This document shows, one piece after another, positions 3,635 through 60,364 of a stretch of 64,000 nucleotides of DNA. The translations under genes were made by a program, and so were the position numbers. The stretch covers positions 14,556 to 78,555 of the forward strand of contig JAWKSL010000002.1 in assembly GCA_041389085.1 (NCBI GenBank), given 5' to 3'. The notes under the pieces were generated by a model that saw only the letters and a program-made list of their open reading frames with translations, was not told the origin of the DNA and did no database searches. How positions within the stretch are numbered: the first letter of the stretch is position 1; each line of letters begins with the position of its first letter. The stretch is from Minisyncoccota bacterium (GTDB taxonomy: Bacteria > Patescibacteriota > Minisyncoccia > UBA6257 > 1-14-0-10-44-23).

Positions 3635-5032
3635 GTGAATTTGGCTCATAGGTTTTTTGTAGCCTTAGTTTTGTTTTTGTGCGGAGTTTTTGTTGCTAGT
3701 TTTCTATCTCAATGGGGCAGTGCCCCTCTTTTTATATTAATTTTGAGTATTCTTCTTGCAGCGCTTTGCTATTTCTTTTCGTTGAGGTGGATGGCTATTC
3801 TGTTTATATTCTTCCTTCTCGGTGGTCAGTACTACCTTTTTGACGATAGGGCGTATCGGGCAAAGGAAATTGATTTTTCTAGTACTGAGTTTTCTGGCGA
3901 AGTTGTGCGGTATGAATATAAGCTTCGCAGCCAGGAGTTTGATGTTGTTTTAGATAGTGGCGCTAAGGTGCGTGTATATAGTGGCGTGGCTCCAAAGGTT
4001 TTTTATAAAGATAGAGTTTCTTTGTTTGGAGAAGCCTTGCCCCTTTCTTCTAATAGTGTGCGGTACTTTGAAAAGGAGGGAGTGAGTGCGACTATGGCTT
4101 TCCCTGAAGTGTCCATTTTAGGCTCCTCAGATTCTTTCCTTGGCGGTTTGTACAAATTTTCTGATCTCGTTTCTGCCCGCTTTGATCGATTTATTGGCGG
4201 GCAGGCTGGTGCGTTTATGGCTGGTATAACCTTAGGGACTGACTCTCGATTTTCTTCTGATCTTAAGCGTAAACTTTCTCTTACGGGTACTACGCATATC
4301 GTTGCTCTTTCGGGATACAACATTAGCATTATCGCCCTTTCTATTTCTTTATTAGCTTCTCGCTTTCTAAGATTGCGCGGAGCGTTTATTGCAAGCGTGG
4401 TTGCTATCTGTTTGTTTGTGCTTATGACTGGGGCGAGTGCAAGTGTGGTGAGGGCGGGGATAATGGGCATGCTAGTACTTTTGGCAAACCAGTTGGGTCG
4501 AGTTTACTCACTTCGAAACGCAATCGCCTTTAGCGCATTTTTGATGGTGCTTGTTAACCCTAAAGTTCTTGTGTTTGACCTTGGGTTTCAGCTCTCATTT
4601 TTAGCACTTATTGGAATAGTGTATTTTTCTCCGGTGATTAAAGGAGTGCTTGGGTTTGCTTCCGACAAAATTTCTATTGTGAAGGAAAGCTTAGCTATGA
4701 CTCTTGCTGCTCAGCTTGCGGTGATGCCACTGATTCTTTTCCAGTTTGGCTTTGTTCCAGTTTTTTCTATCTTTGCCAACGTACTCATTCTTACTTTTAT
4801 CCCACTTACTATGCTTTTGGGGCTTTTTATCTTTCTATTTAGTTTTCTGTCTGCATATTTGGCAGAATTTTTTGGATTACTTAGCCGAATAATTATAGGC
4901 TATATATTTTTCGTGATCGATTTCTTTTCTCGCTTCAGCGTGCAACTTGAGCTTGGATTTTTCTCTATCGTGTTTATGATTGCTTCATTCACCGGGCTAT
5001 TTATGGTTTTATATAAACAACGCAGTATATGA
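3635..5032 (+). CDS. comEC: ComEC/Rec2 family DNA-uptake channel, membrane (competence) domain
   Basis: Polytopic membrane protein carrying the LSLTGTTHIVALSGYNISI competence-domain motif. GTG start. Confidence 0.8.
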   Translation: MNLAHRFFVALVLFLCGVFVASFLSQWGSAPLFILILSILLAALCYFFSLRWMAILFIFFLLGGQYYLFDDRAYRAKEIDFSSTEFSGEVVRYEYKLRSQEFDVVLDSGAKVRVYSGVAPKVFYKDRVSLFGEALPLSSNSVRYFEKEGVSATMAFPEVSILGSSDSFLGGLYKFSDLVSARFDRFIGGQAGAFMAGITLGTDSRFSSDLKRKLSLTGTTHIVALSGYNISIIALSISLLASRFLRLRGAFIASVVAICLFVLMTGASASVVRAGIMGMLVLLANQLGRVYSLRNAIAFSAFLMVLVNPKVLVFDLGFQLSFLALIGIVYFSPVIKGVLGFASDKISIVKESLAMTLAAQLAVMPLILFQFGFVPVFSIFANVLILTFIPLTMLLGLFIFLFSFLSAYLAEFFGLLSRIIIGYIFFVIDFFSRFSVQLELGFFSIVFMIASFTGLFMVLYKQRSI

Positions 5033-10582: not shown

Positions 10583-10811
10583 CGGGCCTCCTTCTTTTTC
10601 CTTTATCTATTTACTCTTTGTATTTCAAGTTGTGCTATACTGTGAGTGTAATGAGTACAGCAGTTACTTGCGGGATATCGACAATGTAACTTCTAAACAA
10701 TTTGTGGCAGAGGAGGCGCTCATCGCGCCTTTTCTGTTTTTTTGACTACCTTTTTACAAAGTGGTATTCATATTAGGTACTTCAACTAACCCACTTGAAA
10801 GGAGGTGGTTC

Positions 10812-10976
10812 ATGCTTCGCTTCTGCGATGCTTGTTGCACCCCCAAACGGTGGGTGTTAAAGAGACAGTCTGGTCAACAGACTTGTCGGGATTGCTCCGA
10901 GAAGGCAGTAGCGCCCCCTCCGACAGCAATCTGCTGCCGTTGTGGTGAAAACAAGCCAGTTCATCGCCACACCTGA
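10812..10976 (+). CDS. small Cys-rich protein (54 aa; CDACC, CRDC, CCRCGE motifs) that reads into a tandem repeat
   Basis: RBS AAGGAGGTG before the ATG. The ORF terminates inside the first repeat unit, and later units are open in other frames. Confidence 0.35.
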   Translation: MLRFCDACCTPKRWVLKRQSGQQTCRDCSEKAVAPPPTAICCRCGENKPVHRHT

Positions 10977-11370
10977 CAATGACAGTGTCAAAGTGCTACC
11001 AACCCCGACAGCGACCTGTTGCCGTTGCGGCGAACAAGGCGGTTGCACGCCACACGCCTGACGGTCCGGAGTGTCAAAAGTGCTGCCAACCCCCGACAGC
11101 GACCTGTTGCCATTGCGGTGAAAACAAACCGGTTGCACGCCACACGCCTGACGGTCGGGTGCAAAAGTGCTACCAGCGTCCGACAGCGACCTGTTGCCGC
11201 TGTGGTGAGAAAAAGCCGGTTCATCGGCGCACGCCAGACGGACCGGAGTGTGCGAGTGTTGCCGGCTAGACTACCAGCGTCCGACAGCGACCTGTTGCCG
11301 CTGTGGTGAAAAGCCGGTTCATCGGCGCGCATGAACGGCCCGGAGTGCAAAAAGTGCTACCAGCGGCTAA
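10890..11370. repeat. tandem direct repeat of about 5-6 units of 80-81 bp (consensus ccgacagcgacctgttgccgNtgNggNgaaaacaaRccggttSaNcgccacacgcctgacggtccggagtgNcaaaagtgctRccaRc); each unit encodes about 27 aa ..TATCCxCGENKPVxRHTPDGPECQKC..
   Basis: Direct reading of the sequence. The region is GC-rich relative to its flanks. Confidence 0.7.
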
Positions 11371-11385
11371 GGCGCGCGAGTTAGC

Positions 11386-11421
11386 GCACTGGGAAGGTAA
11401 TTCTTGCCAGTGCGTTTTTTT
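11386..11421 (+). terminator. rho-independent terminator (gcactggg...ccagtgc + TTTTTTT) closing the repeat locus
   Basis: 7-bp stem followed by a 7-T run. Confidence 0.55.
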
Positions 11422-11542: not shown

Positions 11543-12608
11543 GCGTAACTATTCGTGTGGTATATAATGAGGCTATATGGACTTCAGAAGAATGTTTCTT
11601 TAGTTGAATATACTTCTTTTTTAAGGTTGGAGGGCGGGCTGAAAACTTTGCTCTTGTTGAAAACTCGCTTGAGCTTGAGCGAGCGCTTTCTTCATATGCA
11701 GGAATGCTCCGATTACGTTTCTTGGGTATGGAACAAACACACTTATTTCTGACAAAGGGATTGAGGGGCTTGTAGTTATTCGCGAGGCGATGTGAAGCGC
11801 GATGGAAACGTGCTTATGGCCGATGCGGGAGTAGAGTGGGGTAGCTTTAGTAAAGACTTCGATTGAATCGAATTTGTGGGGGATGGAGCTTTTGAGCGGT
11901 ATTCCTGGCAGCGTTGGGGCTGCTATTTTTATAAACATTAGCGCTTACGGCCAGAGTGCTTCTGACACGGTGCTTTGGGTAGACGTTTTTGATAGGAGAG
12001 AAGATTGTGCGTCGGATGATTCGCGAGCATTTGCAGTGGGTTATAAGCAGTCTGTTTTTCAAGCGAAAGAAAAGGGGAATGTAATTCTGCGCGCTGCCTT
12101 CGAGCTTTCTCATGAGAACTACACCGCCGAGTATCAAGGGGCTCTCGATGTTGCCGCTGAGCTTTCTTTAGATACGAATAGTCTTGGTTCTCGAAGAAAT
12201 AATCCTTGAGGCGAGAAGCAGAGCAGGCTCTATATTTGAATATGGTAAAAGATGTCGTACCGCTGGCTCCTTTTTTAGAAACCCGCTTGTCACTGCGGAG
12301 CGAAGCAGAAAAGATTATCCAAGCTGACGAGTCGGGGAAGAGCACAGAGGCAATACGGAAAATGAATGCTGTTCATGGAGAGGGAGTGATCTACGCGTTT
12401 CTGCAGCACGTTATGCTTGCTGCTGGCTTTTCCAGGGGGCAGTGTTTGGCCTGTTTGTTTAAATGAAAAGAATTTGTTGAAGATGAGAATAAGGGCGAGG
12501 CTACAGCGCAGCAAATATACGATACGGCAAAGCAGATTGTGGCTACCTGCCAAGAAAAGCAGGGTGACTCTTGAACCTGAGGCTAGCCTTTTGGGTAAGT
12601 TTGACTAG
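11543..12608 (+). pseudogene. murB: UDP-N-acetylenolpyruvoylglucosamine reductase (MurB) reading frame broken by at least 4 frameshifts and in-frame stops
   Basis: MurB segments found in three different frames: NVSLVEYTSFLRLEGG; GTNTLISDKGIEGLVVI; DVKRDGNVLMADAGVEWGSF; VKTSIESNLWGMELLSGIPGSVGAAIFINISAYG; AFAVGYKQSVFQ...NVILRAAFEL; AGSFFRNPLV; VTLEPEASLLGKFD. They are colinear with E. coli MurB. Confidence 0.6.
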
Positions 12609-19308: not shown

Positions 19309-19417
19309 TTGATATACTATTTGCCATATATCTAAATGCGTAGGTAGCGCAACGTGTTCGAACGGGCTGCCAGCGAGAGTCCTTTGAACTGAATTTGCTC
19401 CTTGTACAAAACAAAAT

Positions 19418-19633: not shown

Positions 19634-19876
19634 ATGTACTATGTTTACATTATCGAAAGCCTAAAAGATCAGACTCGATACGTCGGTCATACATCTCATA
19701 CACCCAGCAAGAGACTTGATGAGCATAATCGTGGCTTAAATGCTTACACTAAGGCTCGTGCTCCTTACAAAATTGTTTGGTATGGTGCTTTTTTAGAGAA
19801 ACAAAAAGCTAAGGCTTTCGAAGAGTACTTAAAGCATGGCTCTGGCCATGCTTTTGCGAAGAAGAGACTTGTATAG
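19634..19876 (+). CDS. GIY-YIG nuclease superfamily protein (stand-alone domain)
   Basis: MYYVYIIESLKDQTRYVGHTSHTPSKRLDEHN is the canonical GIY..YIG..R..EH signature. Confidence 0.7.
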   Translation: MYYVYIIESLKDQTRYVGHTSHTPSKRLDEHNRGLNAYTKARAPYKIVWYGAFLEKQKAKAFEEYLKHGSGHAFAKKRLV

Positions 19877-19988
19877 GTAAATCCCTACCTACCGGCAGGC
19901 CTCCTTCTGCGCACTATAAAAATGAAAGTGACCCACGACGATCTCCAGAACACCTGGAGTTTTTCTCGTCGCGGGTCGTGCCCCAACC

Positions 19989-20264
19989 TTACGCGCATGG
20001 ATCTCCTCCTCGTTGGAAGTGCGCGATGTAGTAGTCGACAACCGTGTCGCAGTGGGCCTTGCGCTGACCCGCCTTTTCGCGCCCTGCAAGGTTCATGTCT
20101 GCGAGCTGCCTATCTACCACGTCTTGGCCGTAACCCTTCACATCGTTGACAAGGATCCAGACCACAACGCTCATGCGGTCTAGACCCATCGCAATCATCT
20201 CCTGAATGCGGTCAAGGATGAGCTTAGGGTCGATGTTCTCCCTCCCGTTTAGGTGTTGTGCCAA
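19989..20264 (-). CDS. hypothetical protein encoded in a short GC-rich island; TTG start after GGAGG
   Basis: ORF preceded by an RBS. Local GC content is clearly higher than in neighbouring genes. No family recognised. Confidence 0.3.
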   Translation of the reverse strand: MAQHLNGRENIDPKLILDRIQEMIAMGLDRMSVVVWILVNDVKGYGQDVVDRQLADMNLAGREKAGQRKAHCDTVVDYYIAHFQRGGDPCA

Positions 20265-20391
20265 TTGGCACCTCCTTTCACGGGGGTCCTATTTATAGAA
20301 ATAGCATAAATTCACGAATGTGCAAATCCTGAGCCGACTAACTGACTTGAGCATTGTATCTTTCGTTTATCCTTGTTACCATTCTTCCTAT

Positions 20392-20465: not shown

Positions 20466-21254
20466 ATGTCAAAAACTTTTTACGATATGCCCGAATATCG
20501 CAAGAAGCAGAGTGCTATTACTCGATCTAGGTGGCAGTCTGGAAAGTTTGATTTTCTCCGTAAACAAGAGAAGCGCCTTTGTGTACGCAAGGATTGCTCA
20601 CAGAGCTTCGATGTAGCTCCATCTGATTTGAAAAAGTACTGTTCTTCTTCATGTGCGGCTTCGGTGAGCAATGCTCAGCGCAAAATTTCTCGTTCTACAA
20701 AGGAGAAGATCGCAAAATCTGTAAGGAAAGCGTTTTCTGGCAGGAATCACCCGCTTAAGGGGAAGCAGCTTGTTGCGCGCAAACAAGCTCAGTGCGCTAA
20801 TGAGCTTTGTGGTAAAATATTCAAGTTTGAACGCTGGAAAAAGCGTCAGTTTTGTAGCGCAGATTGCGCTATACGTGCAGTTGGCTCTCGACCAACCTCT
20901 CCTCGCGCTGCTCGTGCTAAAGCGGGCGTTCGCAAGGACTTGGGCGACGTATACTTTTTTAGTAGGTGGGAGGCAAACTATGCACGTGCTTTAAATCTTC
21001 TCGGTATAAAATGGGTTCACCAACCTAAGACCTTTTCTCTTAAGACTCAAAAATATACTCCTGACTTTTATCTACCGGAAAGTGATGAGTATGTAGAGAT
21101 TAAAAACTTTTTATCTGATTATTCGCGCAAGAGGGATAGTGAGTTTCGAGAGTTATATCCTGATCTTAAATTGACATTAATTCTTAAGGAGGATTATTTG
21201 AAGTTGCAGGACAAGCTTGCATCAAAAATTAAAACATGGGAATATAGTCGCTAA
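20466..21254 (+). CDS. hypothetical protein with two N-terminal Cys4 zinc-ribbon-like repeats and a C-terminal Vsr/DUF559-like (PD-(D/E)xK-type) endonuclease-like region
   Basis: Repeated C-x3-C...YCSSSC and C-x3-C...FCSADC; C-terminus YFFSRWEANYARALNLLGIKWVHQP...YTPDFYLPESDEYVEIK. The family call is pattern-based. Confidence 0.45.
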   Translation: MSKTFYDMPEYRKKQSAITRSRWQSGKFDFLRKQEKRLCVRKDCSQSFDVAPSDLKKYCSSSCAASVSNAQRKISRSTKEKIAKSVRKAFSGRNHPLKGKQLVARKQAQCANELCGKIFKFERWKKRQFCSADCAIRAVGSRPTSPRAARAKAGVRKDLGDVYFFSRWEANYARALNLLGIKWVHQPKTFSLKTQKYTPDFYLPESDEYVEIKNFLSDYSRKRDSEFRELYPDLKLTLILKEDYLKLQDKLASKIKTWEYSR

Positions 21255-21277
21255 GCTTTGACACTGTCAGAGTTTAT

Positions 21278-21541
21278 GCCGACGTAGCTCAGGGGTAGAG
21301 CACTTCCATGGTAACTCGCTTGAGTTTGCCCATTGGTGTCGCAAGGCACCTCTTGTATCCCGAATAACGGTTAAAGACCCATGGAGGGTTCAGACCGTGG
21401 CCTCTAATGAGGCCCGAACGACTGACAAGGGATTCCTTATTTTAATAAGGAAAAGATACAGTCTAGCCTCCCGATATTCCATGATTTAAGCGGGAGTGTA
21501 AGCGAAGGAAGGGGTCGCGAGTTCAATTCTCGCCGTCGGCT
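21278..21541 (+). tRNA. tRNA-Thr (anticodon GGT) interrupted in the anticodon loop (between positions 36 and 37) by a 192-nt insertion
   Basis: Exons fold into a canonical tRNA: acceptor GCCGACG/CGTCGGC, D arm GCTCAGGGGTAGAGC, anticodon stem CTTCC/GGAAG with loop AUGGU|AA, T arm GCGAGTTCAATTCTCGC. Confidence 0.75.
21313..21504 (+). ncRNA. candidate small group I intron inside tRNA-Thr(GGT)
   Basis: Insertion follows U36 and ends in G (omega-G). It contains R-like GGTTCAGACC and S-like AAGATACAGTCTAGCC core elements. At 192 nt it is comparable to the Azoarcus tRNA-Ile intron, which sits at the same loop position. Confidence 0.55.
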
Positions 21542-21626
21542 CAGCTATTGCGTTTTCTAGGGCTTTTTGGTATTGTTTGTGGCATTCAACTAGAGCCCCT
21601 CAGCGGGGCGCAATAGACCAAAGTTT

Positions 21627-21803
21627 ATGGCAGATTCAAAATTTTCAAAGAATATAGTAAAGCTACGTTGCGTAGAGTGCAATAAAACAAACTATTTCAC
21701 CCGCAAGAACAAAAAGACTGTGGAGCGCAAGCTCGAGTACAGCAAGTTTTGCAATCATAAAGACTGCAGAAAGCACACTACCCACAAAGAAGCGAAGAAA
21801 TAG
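21627..21803 (+). CDS. rpmG: 50S ribosomal protein L33 (zinc-ribbon type)
   Basis: 58-aa ORF below the track cutoff: MADSKFSKNIVKLRCVECNKTNYFTRKNKKTVERKLEYSKFCNHKDCRKHTTHKEAKK. Confidence 0.85.
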   Translation: MADSKFSKNIVKLRCVECNKTNYFTRKNKKTVERKLEYSKFCNHKDCRKHTTHKEAKK

Positions 21804-21828
21804 AGCCCTTGAAGGGCTTATTTCTTTA
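21804..21828 (+). terminator. terminator hairpin agcccttgaagggct + T-run after rpmG
   Basis: Inverted repeat followed by a T-run. Confidence 0.5.
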
Positions 21829-21831
21829 GGT

Positions 21832-21865
21832 TTCAACGGCTCACACATACGTGTGAGCCGTTGAA
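21832..21865. repeat. 34-bp perfect palindrome ttcaacggctcacacATACgtgtgagccgttgaa; member of a dispersed element family (second copy at 50818..50853)
   Basis: Near-identical palindrome is present at both loci, each adjacent to a tRNA gene. Confidence 0.7.
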
Positions 21866-21881
21866 ATTAGGGGCAATTTCT

Positions 21882-21956
21882 GCGATAGTAGGTGAGTTCT
21901 CTGGGCGCATCGGTTAACTGGTAAACCAGCGGTCTCCAAAACCGCGACTGGGGGTT
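21882..21956 (+). tRNA. tRNA-Trp (anticodon CCA), CCA encoded
   Basis: Acceptor GGGCGCA/TGCGCCT (G1-U72), D arm GGTTAACTGGTAAACC, anticodon stem GCGGT/ACCGC with loop CTCCAAA, T arm. Confidence 0.9.
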
Positions 21957-22040
21957 CGAGTCCCTCTGCGCCTGCCATTTGATTTTTTATTTTCGTATCG
22001 CTACTCTGCCTGTAGGCCCTAACCATTGAAAGGAGGGAAT

Positions 22041-22412
22041 ATGGAGCAGGATCTTGATCTGGCCGCTGTCAGTGACTTCCTTCTGGGTTTCGACAATTTC
22101 GAGAGGTTGTCGCAGGGGAGCTACGCTCTTGTTCGCCAAGATGGCAAGGTGGGGCTGGTTTGCATCTCTCGTTTGCAAATCATCGTTCCTGTCGAGTTCG
22201 ATTCGGTGTCTCTCCTCTTCGAGGGGCCGTACGCCCTTGTTGGCTCTGGCCGCAATCACGGCCTGTACTTTCTTGAAGCTCCCGATCTCTTGCTTGAGCT
22301 CGAGTACAGCTTTATCCGCCACGTGGTGGGCCCGCTCTTTCGCGTTCAGCAAGGGTCCTCACGGTGGGGACTCTTCAACGCAGAAGACGGAACCCTTCGG
22401 TGGAAGGAGTAG
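22041..22412 (+). CDS. hypothetical protein with WG-type repeats, in a GC-rich segment
   Basis: RBS AAAGGAGGG before the ATG. Repeats occur at SYALVRQDGKVGLV, PYALVGSGRNHGLYF and RWGLFNAEDGTLRW. A hairpin plus T-run terminator follows at about 22425..22460. Confidence 0.45.
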   Translation: MEQDLDLAAVSDFLLGFDNFERLSQGSYALVRQDGKVGLVCISRLQIIVPVEFDSVSLLFEGPYALVGSGRNHGLYFLEAPDLLLELEYSFIRHVVGPLFRVQQGSSRWGLFNAEDGTLRWKE

Positions 22413-22471
22413 CGCGCATGCCCCCCGCTAGACTATGTTTGGCGGGGGTTTGATTTTTTATATCGGAATTC

Positions 22472-22494
22472 GCGTCCCTCTGCGCCTGCCATTT
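22472..22494 (+). repeat. direct repeat of the 3' end of tRNA-Trp (gtccctctgcgcctgccattt; about 22 nt identical to 21938..21959), candidate attR-like scar
   Basis: Exact duplication of the tRNA 3' terminus about 535 bp downstream of the intact gene. Confidence 0.7.
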
Positions 22495-23303
22495 TTGAAA
22501 AGTGCTATAGTCTTTGATTTTTATTGACAGGAATTTACATGTATTGTTGACTTATTAAGTCGGCGTTTTGCTGGCTTGGAGGCGGCTTTGCCGTGTAGGC
22601 TATGAAACCCAAGGAAACAGAGACCGAGATTGTCCAGGATGACGAGGAAGAGAGGAGTAAGGGTGCAGATACTGCACTCGATGAGCTTGGTGAGAAGCTG
22701 ATCGAAGCTGCTCGTCGCAGCGGTATCCCGATGATCTTCAACCGCGACGGCCGTAGCTTCAGCTTCTAGTGCCTCTTGCACCATCGACGGAGACGCACTG
22801 TTCACTAGCTATTGGCTTCGCACAGCATGGCGTTGAGTTCAGGATGAACTTCGATGGCTAGCTGTAAGAGGGCCTTTGCGCTTTGCGCTGAGGCCCTTCA
22901 TATTTGACAATTTTTTCATATTAAATAGACTGTGTTTCGTAAGTTTCGGAATAAAGAAACATCGATTGCCGCTATAATGCTTGAGGATTCACTCCTTAGG
23001 CAAGGCAGGAGCCCAAACCAGACGAGTGCCAAACACGCAGGTGTTGCTCTGTCTGGGGTTAAAGGAATGGCATATGACTGGCTGCGTACTGGTCGAGGAG
23101 TAGACTCTCGTGAGAGAGGTTGCGCCTTCTGCCATCTCCTGAGTAGGGAGATTCCTCCCGAAATTGGAGGTTTCTAACCTCCAAGGCTAAACCAAGACTT
23201 ACACCATTGGCCACCGATCCCTTAGGGGTGAGGTGGCCGCTTTATTTATAAACAAGCTCTTTGACTTTTTGGGGGGCGAAAGATAGAGTGAGTGGGTTCT
23301 TGT

Positions 23304-23627
23304 ATGGACAGTACGCAGGATAAAGCAGGACTTGAAAAAGAGCTTTTAGAACTAAAAAGGAAGCGAGACGCTCAAGTTCATAGGATTTTCTATCTTATGT
23401 TTGAGTTTGTTTTTATTTTCGGCATTCCTGGCTTTTTAGGGCTTTACCTCGGGAAGCTGCTCGATGAGCGTTTTTCTACTGGCAGAATCCTTACCCTTTC
23501 GCTCATAGCACTGGCGTTTGTACTAAGCTGGGCGATGATAATTCTCCGCTATAAGCGCGTTATGGCAGGGGTTCGTGCTACTGAAACAAGGATTGAGGAT
23601 ATAAAAAAGAAACTCGGAAATGTTTAA
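23304..23627 (+). CDS. AtpZ/AtpI-like small membrane protein preceding the ATP synthase operon
   Basis: Two-TM protein (FIFGIPGFLGLYLGKLLDERF) immediately upstream of and overlapping atpB. Confidence 0.55.
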   Translation: MDSTQDKAGLEKELLELKRKRDAQVHRIFYLMFEFVFIFGIPGFLGLYLGKLLDERFSTGRILTLSLIALAFVLSWAMIILRYKRVMAGVRATETRIEDIKKKLGNV

Positions 23628-31812: not shown

Positions 31813-32022
31813 CTCTTTATCCGCATAGGTGAACCTGCTACTATTCAGGGGTTATTTGCCTTTGTAGCTTCCTCCTACTCCTCCAACTGGCGGATTCGGA
31901 GGACTATGCAATGGACCCCCGCGTGGCTTTGCCATGCTGCAGTAGAGCCTTCTTGTCTTACGCAAAGGCTCACTGCGGGGCACAGTAGAACAATCCGTCC
32001 TACCGCGCCCGACTTGCCTGAC

Positions 32023-38239: not shown

Positions 38240-38327
38240 TTTCTAAATTGTAAAAAGGCTTCAAAAAGGCATATTGACAAATATGCCTTTTTGATATATA
38301 CTTATAGATAGTGAAAGGAGGCCCATC

Positions 38328-38723
38328 ATGAAGACGATGCTGTTTCTCCTGCTCTGCGTGTTGTCTCTCATGGTGGGAGGCCCCGCAGCTGGACAGGAAG
38401 TGCTTCTTCAGAGCACCAAGACTCTTGACCACCGGGCCGTGGTGCGAGTCTACAACCCCAGTCAGTCTCACGCTGCGAAGGTGAGCTGGGAGGGGGAGCT
38501 TCAGGGAGTTGTCGCTCCTCAGAGCTCGCGAACGATTACGATCATTCGCGAGCACCTCGACAGTTTGGCAATGCTTCGCCTGGAAGCGCGCTACTACGAG
38601 GAAGGTTGCGACATTCCGTGCGACATGTGCGAGACGAGCTTCACCTTGTTCCTCATGGACAAGGAAGTGAGCGAAGCTCTCACCTGGCGCCTCGATGCTC
38701 CCTATGCGCGGTTGGGTCAATGA
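38328..38723 (+). CDS. small secreted hypothetical protein in a GC-rich island
   Basis: RBS GAAAGGAGG; signal peptide MKTMLFLLLCVLSLMVGGPAAG; four Cys near the C-terminus. GC content is well above the local average. Confidence 0.5.
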   Translation: MKTMLFLLLCVLSLMVGGPAAGQEVLLQSTKTLDHRAVVRVYNPSQSHAAKVSWEGELQGVVAPQSSRTITIIREHLDSLAMLRLEARYYEEGCDIPCDMCETSFTLFLMDKEVSEALTWRLDAPYARLGQ

Positions 38724-38740
38724 CTCAGCCGCCAATCGCG

Positions 38741-38774
38741 AACCCGCCTTTTTACCGAGGCGGGTTTGTCGTTT
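38741..38774 (+). terminator. rho-independent terminator aacccgcctttttaccgaggcgggtttgtcgttt
   Basis: GC stem followed by a T-run. Confidence 0.6.
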
Positions 38775-39179
38775 ATAAAAGTTTGGAAAAGTTTTTAGAA
38801 AATTTTAAAGGCCCCCGTGCAGATTGGAGCCTGCGGTCGAGGGCCTTGTGCGGCGCGATCTCAGTGATGAGTGTTTCGCATTCGCGAAGGTGTCTCGCTA
38901 TTTTCGCCGAGACTTAGGAGCGAGTGTTCGCGAGGTTTGAACCGAGAGGAGAGTTGGTTCGTTTCGCTACTTGCTCGTCACTTTTTTCGCGCGGTGTGTG
39001 AAGCTTAGGACGTGCGGGGATCGCTCAGGAATCGAGGATATCGAAGCTGGGGGTTAGCCCTTTCGACTCTGTACGATGACTGCGTCTTTCAACTCACACT
39101 TCAAGGATCTGAATATAGTTTAGCAGAAATTTTACTTGCTTTCATCTGGCGGCACGCTAGAATTGTGAATATCTTTTTA

Positions 39180-39250
39180 GGGCTTATAGTGAAGCGGTAT
39201 CACGCATCCATGGCATGGATGAGTTCGGGGTTCGACTCCCCGTAAGTCCA
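39180..39250 (+). tRNA. tRNA-Ala (anticodon GGC) with G3:U70
   Basis: Acceptor GGGCTTA/TAAGTCC including the G3-U70 Ala identity pair, D arm GTGAAGCGGTATCAC, anticodon stem CATCC/GGATG with loop ATGGCAT, T arm CGGGGTTCGACTCCCCG. Confidence 0.8.
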
Positions 39251-39432
39251 CCCTAGCGACCCCTGCCTGCCGGCAGGCAGGGGTTCATAAGTCCGGTACG
39301 GTCCACACAAATAGGTTTTCGGGAGTTAGTGCTTACTACGCAAAAGCCAGATTGCTGTTTGTAGATAAATCAAAGATTTATACAAACAGGGAAGACTCTC
39401 CCTAGGTCCACCAATTGCGTTAGAATAACGAT

Positions 39433-48140: not shown

Positions 48141-49106
48141 ATGAAAAATATCAATACCGCAAGAGATTTCTTTTTGTATCTTTTTGCGACTGTGGCTGCT
48201 ATCTTTAGCGCCGTAAACATTATCGTATTGCTCTGGCAATACATAAATTATTTCTTCCCAGCTCCGTTTAGCTACTATTACGACGGGGTGAGTGGAGCTA
48301 TGAGATTTTCCATCTCAAGCTTAATCATCATCTTCCCACTCTACGTGTGGGTGATGTGGAGTCTTGGAAAAGACATCGATAGGCACCCTGAAAAGAAAGA
48401 CTTCTGGGTGCGCAAGTGGCTTATCTACATAACGCTTTTTGTAGCAGCGATGACCATGATTGTAGACTTGGTTGTTGTACTTAACACTTTCCTTGGCGGA
48501 GACTTTGCCGCTCGCTTTGTATTGAAGGCGCTTGCAGTGCTTGTTGTAGCGGCTGCGGTGTTTTCTTACTACACCTTCAACTTGAAGCGTGAGAGTGGGA
48601 AAGGACTTTCTACTCGAAAGACAATTGCTTGGGTGTCTTCAACAGTGCTTCTTGCTTTGATCGTTGGTGCATTCTTCATCGTAGGTAGCCCTGCGACAAG
48701 CCAAGACAAGCAGCTTGATAGCGAGCGTGTAGCCCACTTGAGCCAAATACAGTGGCAGGTGCTCGACCACTGGCGCCAGTCTGACGTACTTCCAGAAACT
48801 CTCGATGAGCTTAACGATCCTATAATTGGATTTGAAACTCCACGCGATCCAGAGACTCGCGAAGACTACGAATACACTAAGACTTCTGACCTTAGCTTCG
48901 AGCTCTGCGCTACCTTTGCAAGCGAGAGCCGAGACTTCGATCCTGAAGCCACCGATAGCTACGACGAGCGCGCAGCTATCGATTCTGGTGCCTACTATGG
49001 TGGGTATGAAGATTCTCGCTTCTGGCAACACGGAGAAGGAAGAACTTGCTTCGAGAGAACGATAGACCCTGAGAAGCACGCAGCTCCAAAGCCAGTTTAC
49101 TACTAG
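48141..49106 (+). CDS. DUF5671-like membrane protein
   Basis: Four N-terminal TM helices plus an acidic C-terminal extracytoplasmic region. The family call is tentative. Confidence 0.45.
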   Translation: MKNINTARDFFLYLFATVAAIFSAVNIIVLLWQYINYFFPAPFSYYYDGVSGAMRFSISSLIIIFPLYVWVMWSLGKDIDRHPEKKDFWVRKWLIYITLFVAAMTMIVDLVVVLNTFLGGDFAARFVLKALAVLVVAAAVFSYYTFNLKRESGKGLSTRKTIAWVSSTVLLALIVGAFFIVGSPATSQDKQLDSERVAHLSQIQWQVLDHWRQSDVLPETLDELNDPIIGFETPRDPETREDYEYTKTSDLSFELCATFASESRDFDPEATDSYDERAAIDSGAYYGGYEDSRFWQHGEGRTCFERTIDPEKHAAPKPVYY

Positions 49107-49157
49107 TATAAAAATGCTGAGAGCCGCCAACCCTAACGGGATGGCGGCTCTTTGCGT

Positions 49158-50042
49158 TCAGGCGAGCTCTCGTACAGGCGCGGCGGTGAGCCGAATCTGC
49201 ATGCGCTTGCTGCGCATCTTGATGTTTTTGGTGATGCCGAACCACTGGAGGGTCCAGATGAGGTAGCCTGTTGTGTCTACCTGCCACCATTTTTCGCCTT
49301 GGAACATCCACCACTTCTCATGGTGATGGTTGTTGTGCCAGCCCTCGCCACCCACAAGGAGCGCGAGGAGGAAGCTGTTGCGACTGGTGTCTTTCGTCTG
49401 GTAGGGACGCTTGCCCCAGAGGTGTGCCAGAGTGTTGATGGTGCTGGTAGCCTCTCCGAGCACTGCGGTGCTCAGGAAGAAAGAAATCAGCAAGCAACTC
49501 CACCCTCCGTAGAGGTAGCACGCTAGGCCCAGAAGGGCGAAGGGTACTATCTGTAGCCTCTCGAGCCACATGAGCTCGGGGAACTTGGCGAAGTCGGGGA
49601 TCTTCTTCTTGTAGTCGAGCTTGGGCCACCTGCTCAAGAACCAGCCCCACTGAGCGTAGGCAAAGCCGTGCTGAGTCGGGGAGTGCTTGTCGATGGGCTC
49701 GTCGCTGTTCCTGTGGTGGTCGCGATGTTCAGCTGCCCACCAAAGCGGGCCCTTTTGCATCGCGGTGCAACAGATCGCTCCCAGAACGAATTGAGAGAAG
49801 CGCTGGAAGCGCAACTCGTAGGTTCGGTGTGAGAAGTAGCGATGAAGACCGCCGGCTACCGCAAGCGCGCGTACGCGCCAGAGGATGAAGCCAAGCAGGT
49901 AGTCGCGCCAGCTTGCGTCGATGACGCCAGTAGCGTGAAGGACGATGCCCAGAACACCGAGAGTCTTCACGAGGAGGAACCCGATGGTGGTAGGGCTGAG
50001 CCAGTCGACCTTGGGCCGAGCAGCGTTTGTCGCCGTAGTCAT
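49158..50042 (-). CDS. acyl-lipid/acyl-CoA delta-9-type fatty acid desaturase
   Basis: Three His boxes HRYFSH, HRDHHRNSDEP and HNNHHHEKW. Strongly GC-rich relative to the rest of the window. Confidence 0.85.
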   Translation of the reverse strand: MTTATNAARPKVDWLSPTTIGFLLVKTLGVLGIVLHATGVIDASWRDYLLGFILWRVRALAVAGGLHRYFSHRTYELRFQRFSQFVLGAICCTAMQKGPLWWAAEHRDHHRNSDEPIDKHSPTQHGFAYAQWGWFLSRWPKLDYKKKIPDFAKFPELMWLERLQIVPFALLGLACYLYGGWSCLLISFFLSTAVLGEATSTINTLAHLWGKRPYQTKDTSRNSFLLALLVGGEGWHNNHHHEKWWMFQGEKWWQVDTTGYLIWTLQWFGITKNIKMRSKRMQIRLTAAPVRELA

Positions 50043-51685: not shown

Positions 51686-52012
51686 ATGTATTCTTTCCCA
51701 GAGTTGATTAAGAGAATTAGAAATGAGGCCAACCTTACACAGGTTGAATTTGCGAAGGCTCTAAATGTCTCAACTATCCTTGTTTCAATGGTCGAGACTG
51801 GCCAAAAGGAGGTTTCAAAGAAATTTCTTCTTCGACTTGCTGAGAGTTTAAATGTTCATCCGTCGTCTATTACCCCTTTTCTTTTTACTGAAGAAGGTGC
51901 TTCTATTGACCAACTTTCTACTATAGAAAGAAAATTTGTTGTGTGGGGTGAGAGAATGCAGGATTATTTAATACGAGATCGAGCACATCTTTTGCGCCAG
52001 TATGCGAATTAG
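51686..52012 (+). CDS. XRE-family helix-turn-helix protein
   Basis: ELIKRIRNEANLTQVEFAKALNVSTILVSMVETGQKEVS is the canonical Cro/C1-type HTH. Overlaps the RT gene by 11 nt. Confidence 0.7.
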   Translation: MYSFPELIKRIRNEANLTQVEFAKALNVSTILVSMVETGQKEVSKKFLLRLAESLNVHPSSITPFLFTEEGASIDQLSTIERKFVVWGERMQDYLIRDRAHLLRQYAN

Positions 52013-53003
52013 ACGGTACCCTAAGCTGGGGATAAGAAGCAAAAATGAGCTCGCAAAGCGCTTAAGTCACAAAAATTTTTCTACAAAAAATTCTCTTGCC
52101 CTTGTGAATGACGTTATTTCTAATTTCGATTTTTATTGGCATGACAATAAAAAGGAGTCAAATCCTCAAAAAAAGAAATATGTGCGCAGTGCAAAGTATA
52201 GCCCACTAGGAAAATTACTTACTAAAATTAACTCTAGAATTCTTGCTCCTTACGACAAGCTATTGCCAGGATTTATCTTTGGAGGCGTTCAGGGATTAAA
52301 CCATAAAGCGGCAGTGGCTTATCTCCTTGGGCAAAAAAGAAAGCGAGTTCTTTTGAAGGTGGATATCTCTAGGTTTTTTGAACAGATTAAAGATGAGAGG
52401 GTTTTCGATTTTTTTAAGCATAAGTGTGAATGTGGGGTGAGAGGGGCCAAGCTTTTAGCTAGTTTGTGTACCGTTCCCATTGGTCCTAAAAACTTTCCTA
52501 CGTCACATATCAGGACTATTGCTCGTGGCTTTGCTACGTCTCCTCGTCTCGCAATCTGGTGCAATTTAGACACTTTTATTAAACTTGACCGTCTTATTCG
52601 CACTGAATTGCGTGGTAAGGATCCGAGAATTGCAATTTATGTTGATGATATAGGCGTGACTGCAAGCAGAGTTTCAGTTGAGCAAATGGCTCTTCTTTAC
52701 AAAAAAATCGAAAAATTACTCCAGGAGGATAGAAATCAGGGCCTGCCACTTAATGCAGAGAAAACAAGAATAATAGAGCATACTGGGAAAACTTTTGACG
52801 GAAATGGTGTATTAATAACTAGTGAGTGGGGCTATGAGCACTTAGGGGCGCAAATGAAAAGAAATTCCTTAACGATTGGGAAAAAGACAAAAGCAAAATT
52901 AATTGATGTGACACAGAAGTGGGAGCGTGGTGAAGGTGGTATGCTGGTTAAGCTTCGTCGCAAAGCTTTATTGCGTCATAAGAGGTACATGGAGTCGGCT
53001 TAA
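52002..53003 (+). CDS. reverse transcriptase, 333 aa, RT domain only; retron-/Abi-/defence-associated type
   Basis: RT motifs in order: motif 1/2 YVRSAKYSPLGKLLTKINSRIL and PGFIFGGVQGLNHKAAVAY; motif A LLKVDISRFFEQI; motif B ARGFATSPRLAIWCN; motif C IAIYVDDIGV; motif D/E GLPLNAEKTRII. No maturase or endonuclease extension. Confidence 0.75.
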   Translation: MRIRRYPKLGIRSKNELAKRLSHKNFSTKNSLALVNDVISNFDFYWHDNKKESNPQKKKYVRSAKYSPLGKLLTKINSRILAPYDKLLPGFIFGGVQGLNHKAAVAYLLGQKRKRVLLKVDISRFFEQIKDERVFDFFKHKCECGVRGAKLLASLCTVPIGPKNFPTSHIRTIARGFATSPRLAIWCNLDTFIKLDRLIRTELRGKDPRIAIYVDDIGVTASRVSVEQMALLYKKIEKLLQEDRNQGLPLNAEKTRIIEHTGKTFDGNGVLITSEWGYEHLGAQMKRNSLTIGKKTKAKLIDVTQKWERGEGGMLVKLRRKALLRHKRYMESA

Positions 53004-53012
53004 TCAATACAA

Positions 53013-53040
53013 AAAAGGCCCTTGCGGGCCTTTTTAGTTT
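53013..53040. terminator. bidirectional terminator aaaaaaggcccttgcgggccttttt; the same hairpin recurs at 54475 and 55927
   Basis: Perfect hairpin with flanking A- and T-runs. Confidence 0.6.
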
Positions 53041-53162
53041 TCTTAGAGGTACTCGTTGATGGGACTTTGATTTTATTGTCAGTTTTAATAGCTGTGGTAG
53101 GATCTTTTTAGTTCATTTCACCCCGAAATTAGTTTCGGGTCAAACCACGAAAGTGAGGCACT

Positions 53163-54417
53163 ATGCGTACTGCACTTGCAGCTTTCCTTGTAGTTCTGTG
53201 TAGCCTTTGGGCTGCCGCAGCGGCTGTTGCCGATCCGGTGACGGTGCGTGTGAAGAGCAACGATGGCTCCTACTCATACGTGACGCGAGACCTTCCAGCT
53301 TCGAGCTGTGAGGTTTGGACCATCGATTTTCGGCGCGATGACGGAACGATTTGGGGCAGTGAATCTGCCCGGCCCGATCGCGCTGGCGTCGAAGATCGGG
53401 CAGCGAAGTACAACAACTTCCTGAGTTGGATCGGACAATCTCGGGAAGTCGAAGTCGAAGGAGCACTACAACAACCCCTCTCCTGCGTACTGTTCGGTTT
53501 TCAGTAGTGATACTGCAATGCTGGACAAGTTGCGTGGAGACGGGGAGGTGAATTTTCCATTCAAGACGTTGGCAAAAGCTCAGAATGAGGTCTTGGAAAG
53601 GATCCGAAACTATGTGGCAGGGGCAAGGACCTACTACGAGCAGTTCAAAGCTGCTCCCGGGCGGTCTTTCATGGAGTACGGGCGAGTCTTGGCTGACGGA
53701 ATGGCTAAGACGCAGAAGATTGAGCAGGAGCTGCTCACGCCCGCTCTGAGGTTGCCATTTGAGGTGATGAATCCCGATGGTTTTGCTCCTTTCCTAACTG
53801 GCATCGACGAGGAGGGTGTCACTTGGATGCGCTCTTGGGCTCGCGCAGTGCGAGCTGAGGAGCCGAGAATTCAGCAAGGGATTCGGACTATTCAGCAAGT
53901 GATGCGCGATAATCAAAAAGATGCACGCGAGAACTCTCGTGAGTATGACGCTGCAGTTGCTAGGATTGAGCGTCTTCGGCGCGACATCCGCAACGCCCGT
54001 GATCCTCGTATGATCGACATCCTTGAGAGGGATTTGGCGCGAGCCGAAGAGAAGCGTGACTACGCCATGGAAAGGCAATGGAGTTTTGATGAGCAGAGGG
54101 AGGCAAATGAAGAGCGAATCCGCAATCTGCGTGAGCGTGAGCTCGAGGTTCCCGAGAAGCTTTCGTTCATTCTTCAATTTTCCTACAGCTGTGGTTGCGC
54201 ACTGGAAGTGAGCGAGGTGTTTGAAGATGGCGATAGGGAGGGGGATGGTGTGGAGCGACTTAGCGATCGTTGCTCTGTATGTGGCGGTAGCGGTAAGGTT
54301 GATGTCATGGAGAACGGTGAGCTTTGGCGAGACTACATCAAGCGAATCCCAATCTCCGCGCGACCTCCGGCGCGGCGGATTACCTGCCCTGAGTGCGGTG
54401 GCACTGGCAAGCGGTGA
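53163..54417 (+). pseudogene. secreted protein with charged coiled-coil region and C-terminal DnaJ-type CxxCxGxG zinc-finger motifs, copy 1; frameshifted (split 53163..53507 and 53518..54417)
   Basis: N-terminal 45 aa are identical to copy 2. An insertion/duplication around 53400..53480 (KYNNF... versus EHYNNPSP) shifts the frame. C-terminus CSVCGGSGKV...CPECGGTGKR. Confidence 0.5.
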
Positions 54418-54474
54418 CCCACCTTGTGAGGCCTGGCGTTCTACGGAACGCCAGGCCTTTCGTTTTTTAATATC

Positions 54475-54765
54475 AAAAAAGGCCCTTGCGGGCCTTTTTA
54501 GTTTTCTTAGAGGTACTCGTTGATGGGACTTTGATTTTATTGTCAGTTTTAATAGCTGTGGTAGGATCTTTTTAGTTCATTTCACCCCGAAATTAGTTTC
54601 GGGTCAAACCACGAAAGTGAGGGCACTATGCGTACTGCACTTGCAGCTTTCCTTGTAGTTCTGTGTAGCCTTTGGGCTGCCGCAGCGGCTGTTGCCGATC
54701 CGGTGACGGTGCGTGTGAAGAGCAACGATGGCTCCTACTCATACGTGACGCGAGACCTCCCGGTC
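54475..54765 (+). repeat. about 290-bp near-identical direct repeat of 53013..53300, covering the terminator, the promoter region and the first about 45 codons
   Basis: Direct comparison. Both repeats include a truncated '...INEYL*' 3' gene end on the minus strand; an intact copy of that gene lies at 55967..56782. Confidence 0.8.
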
Positions 54766-55869
54766 TCAAGCTGTGTTCTCTGGACTGTCGACTTCCGTCG
54801 AGATGATGGAACAGTTTGGGGTAGCGAGTCTGACTCTGACAAGGCTAGGGTTGAAAAGAGGGCGGCAGCATCTCGCGCGTTTGTTAGTTTGATAGACGCT
54901 CTTGCGAAGTCTTCTTCACAAGAACACTATAACAACCCCTCTCCTATGTATTGCTCGGTTTTTAGTAGTGATACTAAGATCTTGGGTAAATTGGGTGGAG
55001 ATGGTGAGGGAAATTTTCCATTCAAGGTCTTTAGCAATGCCCGGGCCGATGTTCGTTCAAGAATTGTAAATTTTTCAACTGGCGTGCGAACTTACTACGA
55101 ACAGTTCAAGTCTGCTCCCGGGCGGTCTTTCATGGAGTATGGGCGCGCCTTGGTTGATGGAATGGCAAAGGTGCAGAAAATTGAGCAACAAATGCTGTCC
55201 CCATCTCTCAGCTTGCCGTTTGAGCTTACGAGCTCGAATGGCTTTGAGCCGTTCTTTATTGGACTCGACCGTGAGGGTACTGCGCGGATGCGTTCTTGGG
55301 CTCGTTCTATCCAAGGAGAGGAGGCGATCATCCAAAAGGAGATTGAGACTGTCCGGTGGGCAATGCGTGAAAACAAAAAGCTCGCCGGCCTCTACTCACG
55401 TGAGCATGATGTTGCGGTTGCGAAGATTGAGCGCCTTAGGCGCAGGCTGCGCTCGGAGCGCGATCCTGAAAGGATTGATGCTTTGAAGCAGGATTTAGAT
55501 CTCGCAATTGAAAAGCGTGATCGCGCTCTTGAGCGGCGCTGGGAGTTTGAACAGATTGAAGATGACGATGAGGAGAAGCTTTTCGATCTCCGTGCGCGCG
55601 AAGGTAAAATTCCTGATAGGCTTTCATTTGTTTCTAGTTTTGCTCGTAGCTGCGGCTTCGAGTTAGATGCTGAGACGGTCTTTGGTAGTCCCGACCCAGG
55701 TCAAGAAGCGAGCGGGGATAGTTGTCCTACCTGCAAAGGCACTGGACGAATTCATCCTCAACGTCGTTCTTCTTCGGACGATGCTCCTCCTGGCTCTAGT
55801 ACAGCCAGTCCTGCACTTTCGGAGTCTGGAGAAACTTGCCCCACATGCGGTGGCACTGGCAAGCGGTGA
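54628..55869 (+). CDS. secreted protein with charged coiled-coil region and two C-terminal CxxCxGxG zinc-finger motifs, copy 2, intact (413 aa)
   Basis: Signal peptide MRTALAAFLVVLCSLWAAAAAVA; ER/K-rich helical region; CPTCKGTGRI...CPTCGGTGKR. GC-rich. Confidence 0.55.
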   Translation: MRTALAAFLVVLCSLWAAAAAVADPVTVRVKSNDGSYSYVTRDLPVSSCVLWTVDFRRDDGTVWGSESDSDKARVEKRAAASRAFVSLIDALAKSSSQEHYNNPSPMYCSVFSSDTKILGKLGGDGEGNFPFKVFSNARADVRSRIVNFSTGVRTYYEQFKSAPGRSFMEYGRALVDGMAKVQKIEQQMLSPSLSLPFELTSSNGFEPFFIGLDREGTARMRSWARSIQGEEAIIQKEIETVRWAMRENKKLAGLYSREHDVAVAKIERLRRRLRSERDPERIDALKQDLDLAIEKRDRALERRWEFEQIEDDDEEKLFDLRAREGKIPDRLSFVSSFARSCGFELDAETVFGSPDPGQEASGDSCPTCKGTGRIHPQRRSSSDDAPPGSSTASPALSESGETCPTCGGTGKR

Positions 55870-55966
55870 CCCACCTTGTGAGGCCTGGCGTTCTACGGAA
55901 CGCCAGGCCTTTCGTTTTTTAATATCAAAAAAGGCCCTTGCGGGCCTTTTTAGTTTTCTTAGATTC

Positions 55967-60032: not shown

Positions 60033-60154
60033 TTGTGCCGGAGGTGGGACCCCGATGCTTCGAGCGGGGCATGCTTGAACTCTCACGCCGTTAGGCACAG
60101 GATTTTGCCCCGATGGGAATTTAAAAATTCCAACGGGGTAAAAATCCTAACTTT

Positions 60155-60238
60155 GGTGCCGGAGGTGGGACTTGAACCCACACACCTTGCGGTACGGGGT
60201 TTTGAATCCCGCGCGTCTACCAGTTCCGCCACTCCGGC
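60155..60238 (-). tRNA. tRNA-Leu (anticodon CAA), type II
   Basis: Reverse complement folds with acceptor GCCGGAG/CTCCGGC, D arm GCGGAACTGGTAGACGC, anticodon loop TTCAAAA, long variable arm and T arm GTGGGTTCAAGTCCCAC. CCA encoded. Confidence 0.85.
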
Positions 60239-60364
60239 ATATGCCTTGGATCTCGTGGTCGCCATAGGCGACTAAATCTACCAGTTTCCGCCACTTTACT
60301 CGCCTCTGGCAGTCCGGCATGTTTACTTATACATTTAAGGTCAGATGTCTGCTAAAATCAAGGT

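Follow-up and report, generated by a model that had tools for sequence, protein, structure and literature searches.

We analysed a 64,000-nt stretch of the genome of a Minisyncoccota bacterium (positions 14,556 to 78,555 of contig JAWKSL010000002.1, assembly GCA_041389085.1; hereafter, the window), in which the 3' end of a tRNA-Trp gene recurs a short distance downstream of the gene itself. The gene order at this locus is rpsB, tsf, tRNA-Tyr, an open reading frame (ORF) of the GIY-YIG type, tRNA-Thr(UGU), an endonuclease-like ORF, an intron-containing tRNA-Thr(GGU), rpmG, tRNA-Trp, the feature under study and the atp operon. Both ARAGORN and Rfam placed a tRNA-Trp(CCA) with an encoded CCA at 21903-21977. 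It is followed by a GC-rich cargo segment, S1, which holds a gene for a WG-repeat protein, then by the displaced copy of the tRNA 3' end and by a further segment, X, that reaches to the atp promoter. Two genomes were available for comparison, L001 (a Logan contig of 6.25 kb, which carries P0001, a relative of the WG-repeat protein) and L084 (JGI contig Ga0210057_1000661, 56 kb). The features from the tRNA-Trp promoter to the displaced copy are as follows, where attL and attR denote the putative left and right attachment sites and RBS the ribosome-binding site.

21861..21889, + strand: promoter-like site upstream of tRNA-Trp (TTGAAA-17-GATAGT with TG), conserved in L001.
21903..21977, + strand: tRNA-Trp(CCA), intact, with encoded CCA, 75/75 identical to the L084 tRNA-Trp; candidate regenerated target gene on the attL side.
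21949..21980, + strand: repeat copy 1, putative attL core, comprising the T-stem 5' strand, T-loop, T-stem 3' strand, acceptor 3' strand, G73, CCA and TTT.
21978..21990, + strand: TTTGATTTTTTAT motif, copy 1, directly 3' of tRNA-Trp.
21981..22462, + strand: cargo segment S1, with a spacer containing the RBS, the WG ORF and a terminator; GC-rich and 91% identical to L001 160-629.
22041..22412, + strand: 123-aa protein with three WG repeats (Pfam PF14903) and no evident signal peptide.
22422..22461, + strand: intrinsic-terminator-like hairpin (22422-22448) followed by a TTTGATTTTTTAT T tail (motif copy 2, 22449-22461).
22457..23247, + strand: 791-nt segment missing in L001, which holds repeat copy 2 and all of X; its junction is ambiguous over an ATTT microhomology.
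22463..22494, + strand: repeat copy 2, the displaced tRNA fragment and putative attR core; 28/32 identical to copy 1 and exact from T-loop G59 to CCATTT.
22513..22524, + strand: TTTGATTTTTAT motif, copy 3, 18 nt past repeat copy 2.

The repeat spans the tRNA-Trp from the T-loop to the 3' end and reads TTCG[A/C]GTCCCTCTGCGCCTGCCATTT. Its two 26-nt copies, returned by a repeat finder as TTCGAGTCCCTCTGCGCCTGCCATTT (21955-21980) and TTCGCGTCCCTCTGCGCCTGCCATTT (22469-22494), are identical at 25 of 26 positions and share an exact block of 21 nt (21960-21980 and 22474-22494); they lie 514 bp apart from start to start, with 488 bp between them. An earlier note on this DNA, made from the letters alone, had described an exact 22-nt repeat of the tRNA 3' end closing an insert of 535 bp. 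The repeat is real, but both figures were too large, and the first copy lies at 21960-21980 rather than at 21938..21959. When the 21-mer was searched for with up to 3 mismatches, just these two copies were found in the window and none in 100 shuffled sequences. Copy 2 is on the same strand (+) as its cognate tRNA-Trp and downstream of it, and the match can be extended to 32 nt (21949-21980 versus 22463-22494) with 28 identities, all four mismatches falling in the first 11 nt, 5' of the T-loop G59 (P = 0.009). The similarity is two-tiered, being complete (21/21) from G59 through CCA and TTT and partial (7/11; chance P about 0.008-0.02) upstream of it. As far as can be read from the two sequences, this clustering of mismatches fits a crossover within the T-loop between the gene and an imperfect half-site of an incoming attachment site (attP). 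The putative att core can be written as TTCGNGTCCCTCTGCGCCTGCCA, and the attR junction observed is ...TTTGATTTTTTATATCGGAATTCGCGTCCCTCTGCGCC.... Since TATATCGGAATTCGCGTCCC, at the junction, is no tRNA sequence, it cannot have been produced by an assembly that passed from one strain variant to another via a tRNA k-mer common to both, and the junction 22459-22473 is unique. The window contains the motif TTTGATTTTT four times, against 0.53 expected; three of these occurrences, all of the form TTTGATTTTT(T)AT, flank the two cores: at 21978-21990, right after core 1; at 22449-22461, 7 nt before core 2; and at 22513-22524, 18 nt after core 2. These sites may be terminator tails or recombination arm sites.

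The WG ORF, which is preceded by the RBS sequence AAAGGAGGGAATATG, is the single gene between the two copies. It matched the Pfam family WG_beta_rep (PF14903) with 26.7 bits, above the cutoff of 25.6, and contains the repeated WG motif of this family. The GC content of the insert (0.54) and of the WG ORF (0.56) exceeds the window mean of 0.466 (sd 0.037, 500-bp windows), with only 1.9% of the 500-bp windows being as GC-rich, and the GC content at third codon positions (GC3) is 0.67 in the WG ORF versus 0.38-0.46 in the atp genes. The WG cargo is, in composition, foreign. The earlier description of one RBS-preceded WG-repeat ORF with its own terminator, in a segment of higher GC content than its flanks, was thus borne out. 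A homology search against 5.8 billion proteins returned only one close relative of the WG protein, P0001 (92% identical), and 715 distant homologues at E ≤ 1e-3, almost all of them long multi-repeat WG proteins; among ten distant homologues that were looked up, one of 168 aa is attributed by its name to Candidatus Taylorbacteria. The differences between the WG ORF and the P0001 gene of L001 are distributed 7/4/20 over the three codon positions, the only indel is of 3 nt and in frame, and the ratio of nonsynonymous to synonymous divergence (dN/dS) is 0.16 (dS 0.27; proportion of synonymous differences, pS, 0.22), indicating that the WG ORF is a real gene under purifying selection. The pS of the WG ORF is also below the value of 0.47 pooled over the seven adjacent atp genes (binomial P = 3e-6). 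Composition and low synonymous divergence together suggest, at the level of sequence, that the WG gene is foreign DNA which the two lineages came to share more recently than their core genes. A single-sequence AlphaFold model of the WG protein was uninformative (pLDDT 40), and neither PHROGs nor PADLOC returned a match for the WG ORF, for an orphan ORF of X (ORF55) or for an 81-aa ORF.

Comparison with L001 showed that this genome carries tRNA-Trp, the same spacer, the WG gene and the terminator, and then passes straight to the atp promoter and atpI. The two sequences are collinear over window positions 21854-22456 and from 23241 onward, and the 791-nt block (22457-23247) is the only large indel in 5.6 kb of alignment. 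As L001 has the WG gene and lacks both copy 2 and the 791 nt, the piece that is polymorphic between these genomes is the downstream segment and not the proposed insert. The tRNA-Trp gene of L001 (82-156) differs from that of the window (21903-21977) at 16 of 75 positions, its flanks being about 90% identical, and the changes are compensatory, affecting the acceptor 7:66 pair, the D-stem and the anticodon stem. In the more distant L084, tRNA-Trp also follows rpmG and is identical to that of the window. This indicates that the tRNA gene was replaced in L001, and the locus must then have undergone several recombination events. The 62 nt of flank available downstream of the L084 tRNA-Trp match neither S1 nor X, and an identical tRNA gene with a wholly different flank points to a variable position. 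Exact-protein look-ups with L33, the 123-aa and 128-aa starts of the WG protein, ORF55 and AtpI retrieved no other contigs, and that with AtpE retrieved one 1.1-kb contig of the same strain (L085, from Logan, run SRR32608987; 100% identical over 1128 bp), which stops short of the site. The AtpI homology search found the source metagenome-assembled genome and L001 alone, and an AtpB scan of genome contigs found relatives at ≤63% identity, without the tRNA-Trp/atp synteny.

We consider it somewhat more probable than the reverse that the two copies are an attL/attR pair left by site-specific integration at the T-loop of tRNA-Trp, with S1 as the surviving or sole cargo. A circular DNA carrying a look-alike of the tRNA-Trp T-arm as its attP would have recombined with the chromosomal gene through a crossover inside the T-loop, presumably catalysed by a tyrosine integrase. 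The incoming DNA would have supplied a new 3' end (21955-21977), keeping tRNA-Trp intact, and the original 3' end would have been moved downstream to 22474-22494. Bases 22463-22473 would derive from the half-site of the element, which would account for their being only partly T-stem-like. One expressed-looking WG cargo gene with its own RBS and terminator would be what is left between the sites, the integrase and the rest of the element having been deleted, or the integrase never having been on S1 and having acted in trans. The circular attP junction is predicted to read ...TATATCGGAATTCG[A/C]GTCCCTCTGCGCCTGCCATTTGATTTTTTATTTTCGTATCG... and the empty chromosomal site (attB) ...GGGGGTTCGAGTCCCTCTGCGCCTGCCATTTTTGAAAAGTGCTATAG.... 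The 3' end of tRNA-Trp would in addition be a stacking site, with S1 as the newest unit beside the tRNA gene and X behind the displaced fragment and ahead of the atp promoter; X would be the older of the two, pushed away from the tRNA gene, because new elements enter beside the intact gene. We infer this order of events, and any remaining ability of S1 to excise would likewise be an inference. In L001, attR and X would have been deleted between TTGATTT and TTTATTT, or would never have been present; alternatively, S1 was gained independently there and about 40 nt were then lost between two ATTT repeats.

Several results weigh against this interpretation. Among about 44 ORFs tested with Pfam across the window, none was an integrase or recombinase (PF00589, PF00239), as the earlier note had anticipated when it wrote that no integrase was left. 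Nor was an attP-bearing element found: in IMG/VR viral contigs the att core was present only in two phage tRNA arrays, and a scan of JGI metagenomes with a 48-nt query from the tRNA-Trp anticodon stem to CCA returned only one chromosomal tRNA-Trp; this query could detect only copies with the anticodon arm, the bare T-arm attP core not having been searched there. The WG ORF, for which a search of phage and plasmid databases had been suggested, and X likewise gave nothing in phage and plasmid collections (DNA and protein) or in IMG/VR. No empty site was seen in L001, which has the WG gene in the same place, or in the 62 nt of L084 flank, the searched collections containing no other relatives. 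That L001 carries the cargo without attR requires the assumption of at least one extra deletion, or of an independent acquisition followed by loss of attR. Only two genomes could be compared, one of them with 62 nt of flank. Finally, the synonymous divergence of atpE is as low as that of the WG ORF, and the low dS of the latter could stem from codon or GC constraint. The integration into a tRNA 3' end proposed in the earlier note is supported by the T-loop geometry, the foreign cargo and the missing integrase; the empty site that it suggested looking for in related genomes was not seen in the two available. Its decayed islet is likewise retained, as an eroded islet resembling a cis-mobilisable element (CIME), while the satellite-like mobility attached to it finds no counterpart in the data.

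The same arrangement might have arisen without an integrase, which we hold to be unlikely. Foreign DNA with a tRNA-Trp 3' end and the WG gene, circularised or anchored on one side, would have entered through RecA or homology-facilitated illegitimate recombination after natural transformation, duplicating a short homologous stretch; in a variant of this scenario, a new tRNA-Trp with the S1 block replaced an older tRNA-Trp, of which copy 2 is the remnant. A ComEC-type competence protein is indeed encoded at 3635-5032, the last 28 nt of tRNA-Trp are common to relatives and phage tRNA arrays and might serve as a homology anchor, other tRNA genes of the window have 5' as well as 3' self-fragments resembling remnants of old genes, and the divergent L001 tRNA-Trp within its conserved flanks speaks for gene replacement at this locus. 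Nevertheless, a homology of 21-26 nt reaches at most the shortest length that RecA-mediated exchange usually requires, and the junction of an illegitimate event is expected to be random, whereas the repeated blocks start inside the T-loop at tRNA-Trp, tRNA-Ala and tRNA-Leu. The 7/11 similarity upstream of G59 and the clustering of the mismatches are also unlike the neutral decay of an old gene. We give somewhat less credit to the possibility that the WG gene is the resident, in an ancestral order tRNA-Trp, WG, atp, and that the mobile or inserted piece is the 791-nt block, which would begin with a tRNA-Trp 3' fragment by coincidence; imprecise excision or illegitimate recombination at another tRNA-Trp locus might have supplied that fragment. 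This block is the sole actual difference between the two close genomes. It is bounded by ATTT microhomology, no further large indel interrupts the alignment, and the ORF it contains is an orphan of foreign composition. However, an ad hoc source has to be supposed for a fragment that matches the tRNA allele of the window itself (T66) and not that of L001, the T-loop start of the fragment and the GC3 richness and low dS of the WG gene are left unexplained, and a simple deletion in L001 between TTGATTT and TTTATTT accounts for the same data.

Two further explanations carry very little weight. That copy 2 is functional, being kept for the downstream transcript as a tRNA-like 3' module which signals processing or CCA addition or serves as a decoy, appears very improbable: the copy does retain CCA, and a downstream copy of tRNA-Ala ends in CCACCA though its gene encodes no CCA, but there is no 5' acceptor strand or T-stem partner (CGGAA faces CCCTC), the copy is missing in L001, and the corresponding copy of tRNA-Leu is broken by a 24-nt insertion and ends in CAA. 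A chance match or an assembly chimera is the least credible of all. The source is a metagenome-assembled genome and the same-strain contig L085 does not reach the site, which leaves room for an artefact; against this, the shuffled sequences gave no match, the unique junction at 22459-22473 is not derivable from tRNA-containing variants, and for the left part of the structure L001 provides independent confirmation.

Islands and prophages integrated at tRNA genes are, in the accounts of Reiter in 1989 and Williams in 2002, said to be bounded by the intact tRNA gene (tDNA) and a displaced fragment of it. The locus shows this organisation, with an intact tDNA that is accompanied, on its own strand and on the correct side, by a displaced piece of itself, and with a fragment boundary at a canonical crossover subsite (exact from T-loop G59). 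The Islander collection comprises 3760 islands with 3' fragments, 159 with 5' fragments and 1836 with sites in the T-stem region, and its crossover subsites are the anticodon loop, the T-loop and the T/acceptor junction, a T-loop crossover being subsite T/J (PMC4383910). Partial tRNA genes arising from integration events are common across prokaryotes (PMC9897764). Like such tDNA islands, the feature has a block of identity that extends from the T-loop past the 3' end, a compositionally foreign cargo and a location where units can stack as in tandem arrays. Unlike them, it has an interval of 0.49 kb instead of kilobases to tens of kilobases, and neither an empty site nor an attP was found for it. 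The interval holds the WG ORF and no tyrosine or serine integrase gene, so the feature would fail the filters of Islander.

The CIMEs of Streptococcus thermophilus are att-flanked remnants of integrative elements which have lost the genes for recombination and transfer; those described measure several kilobases and have known cognate integrative and conjugative elements (ICEs). The feature resembles them in being flanked by attL/attR-like repeats (25/26, 21 nt exact), whose att function we infer from the repeat, without recombination genes between them, and by analogy it could in principle excise in trans or accrete with an incoming element. It differs in that no helper is known for S1 and one att site is missing in L001; no autonomous partner that combines this att core with an integrase appeared in the viral, JGI, phage and plasmid scans. 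We describe the feature as a CIME-like islet that has been eroded and that occupies a tRNA integration hotspot. It belongs to a known kind and is unusual only for its size of about 0.5 kb without a recombinase gene. It is quite improbable that S1 is instead an integrative cassette in its complete form, non-autonomous and with a single gene, which measures 514 bp when one core is counted in and is moved in trans by a T-loop-specific integrase, and we are equally sceptical that the tRNA-Trp 3' end acts as an integron-style acceptor where mini-cassettes, here S1 and then X, stack and get lost. Compatible with such cassettes are the compactness of the unit, in which RBS, ORF, terminator and core lie flush with both sites, the presence of the 13-nt TTTGATTTTTTAT motif on both sides of the reconstructed attP, and a cargo dS below that of core genes. 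As in integron cassettes, a unit of about 0.5 kb with a single ORF would be stacked with others at one acceptor site; unlike them, the site is a tRNA T-arm, the unit has its own terminator and there is no attC-type imperfect palindrome, IntI or attI. The only inverted repeats found in 21000-23500 were the hairpin downstream of rpmG (21831-21866) and a distant pair of 83% identity, to which a terminator scan added the WG terminator hairpin.

Group I introns likewise interrupt tRNA genes in Patescibacteria (PMC13011429), and a candidate lies 360 nt upstream, in the tRNA-Thr(GGU) gene (21278-21542). S1 is different in that it trails a complete tRNA, codes for protein and has its boundary in the T-loop and not in the anticodon loop, without the U/omega-G of these introns. 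We rejected S1 as an intron, as the tRNA-Trp is complete before S1, S1 has a codon-position pattern of divergence and Rfam returned no match. Also rejected was a split tRNA-Trp whose 3' exon would be copy 2, since no 5' fragment lies upstream.

Displaced tRNA fragments are standard markers of past integration, and the finding is in itself an ordinary one whose value is local: a streamlined Patescibacteria genome appears to have been struck repeatedly at its tRNA genes, with inserts eroded to 20-500 bp, and at tRNA-Trp a small gene under selection would be the sole survivor. If the 0.5-kb unit could be moved in trans, it would rank with the smallest known integrative cassettes, and would point to tRNA-based cassette capture in a phylum whose mobile elements are poorly charted.

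The two phage tRNA arrays with tRNA-Trp sequence (L082 2911-2955 and L083 127-202, in IMG/VR contigs of 253 kb and 50 kb) are identical to the window tRNA-Trp over its last 28 nt. The L083 match is a called tRNA-Trp gene, and that of L082, just past a called tRNA-Trp (2821-2898), has the appearance of a partial copy. These arrays are possible recombination partners, or a possible link to the host.

Downstream of repeat copy 2, segment X and the right-hand flank contain the following features.

22602..22769, + strand: ORF55, an orphan, putatively coding 55-aa ORF, GC-rich (GC3 0.62), whose sole database match is itself.
22904..22931, + strand: promoter-like site within X (TTGACA-16-TAGACT, 10/12 positions).
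22932..23250, + strand: candidate structured RNA of 319 nt with a terminal hairpin (GGCCACC...GGTGGCC, 23209-23238) followed by a T-rich tail.
23261..23289, + strand: promoter-like site of the atp operon, in the right-hand conserved flank, which aligns with L001 from 623; an atpI-like gene starts at 23304.

A homology search with ORF55 found no relatives. The candidate RNA has a minimum free energy of -123.9 kcal/mol and, against shuffled sequences, z = -4.46 on the + strand versus -3.2 on the - strand; Rfam contained no family for it, even at E ≤ 10, nor does it resemble the intron in the tRNA-Thr gene nearby. A degenerate third att copy at the right end of X was discarded, ATTT alone matching, as was an origin of X by tRNA-primed reverse transcription, the reverse transcriptase of the window being retron-like and 29 kb away.

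Self-fragments were found at 5 of the 9 tRNA genes of the window, that is, at tRNA-Trp and four others. Same-strand flanks scored at least 28 in 5 of 16 cases, and the opposite-strand control never scored above 19. In three further 3' fragments (one of tRNA-Leu and two of tRNA-Ala), the block of high identity starts in the T-loop, as it does at tRNA-Trp. Fragments at other tRNA genes indicate that recombination at tRNA genes is recurrent in this genome, the simplest reading being that DNA integrated there again and again and was then almost wholly eroded, as in a small genome with a deletion bias. The tRNA-Leu(CAA) gene (60154-60238, - strand) lies between remnants of an older copy of itself, at 60033-60101 and 60277-60317. 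The downstream copy (60101-60033) runs from the variable arm to the 3' end, its last 16 nt being exact, and its T-loop is split at 59/60 by a 24-nt hairpin insertion; the upstream remnants are fragments of the 5' acceptor and D-arm. The tRNA-Ala gene (39180-39252, + strand) is followed by two degenerate copies of its T-arm to 3' end in series, at about 39280-39313 and 39388-39413, the second of which is the one ending in CCACCA, and the gene is separated from the first copy by a perfect GC-rich palindrome (about 39262-39286). Same-strand 5' fragments were found at 19334-19369, 45 nt upstream of tRNA-Tyr, and at 31986-32002, 20 nt upstream of tRNA-Arg. Both end near the anticodon loop, which would fit the rarer class of 5' tDNA fragments, or relics of intron or gene replacement.

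The intron-containing tRNA-Thr(GGU) gene (21278-21542, + strand) was missed by ARAGORN and Rfam. It consists of exon 1 (21278-21312, ending in U36), a 192-nt intron (21313-21504) that ends in G (omega-G) and contains AAGATACAGTC, and exon 2 (21505-21542), the exons being 97% and 92% identical to the intronless gene of L084. From its sequence, the intron is a candidate member of the divergent 36/37 tRNA-Thr group I class (PMC13011429). A nested arrangement of tRNA-Thr(CGU) was observed at about 12270-12520 of the Levybacteria contig MFOV01000014.1 (L037), where an intact-looking 5' half up to position 35, 13 nt, a complete tRNA-Thr(CGU), 16 nt and the matching 3' half from position 36 succeed one another. 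The 13-nt and 16-nt spacers are complementary to each other, and another 3' half, an orphan, comes next. Either an insert that itself contains a tRNA gene has interrupted a tRNA at 35/36, or the arrangement is a row of integration scars.

Free-standing genes for nucleases lie among the tRNA genes of the window, one at 20466-21254 (+ strand), encoding a 262-aa endonuclease with an endonuclease I / Holliday-resolvase-like C-terminus and present in the same place in L084, and one at 19634-19876 (+ strand), encoding the 80-aa GIY-YIG protein. Other short GC-rich patches (0.55-0.61 versus the mean of 0.47) were located at 19900-20300, 10700-11400, 38300-38800 and 49000-50000, the first of them lying between tRNA-Tyr/GIY-YIG and tRNA-Thr and having no convincing ORF. 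A reverse transcriptase gene (52002-53003, + strand) lies about 0.9 kb downstream of tRNA-Ser(UGA), its best PADLOC match being the retron reverse transcriptase type VI (E = 1.6e-24), and is followed at 53010-55963 by a tandem duplication (period about 1465 bp) that contains two uncharacterised paralogous ORFs.

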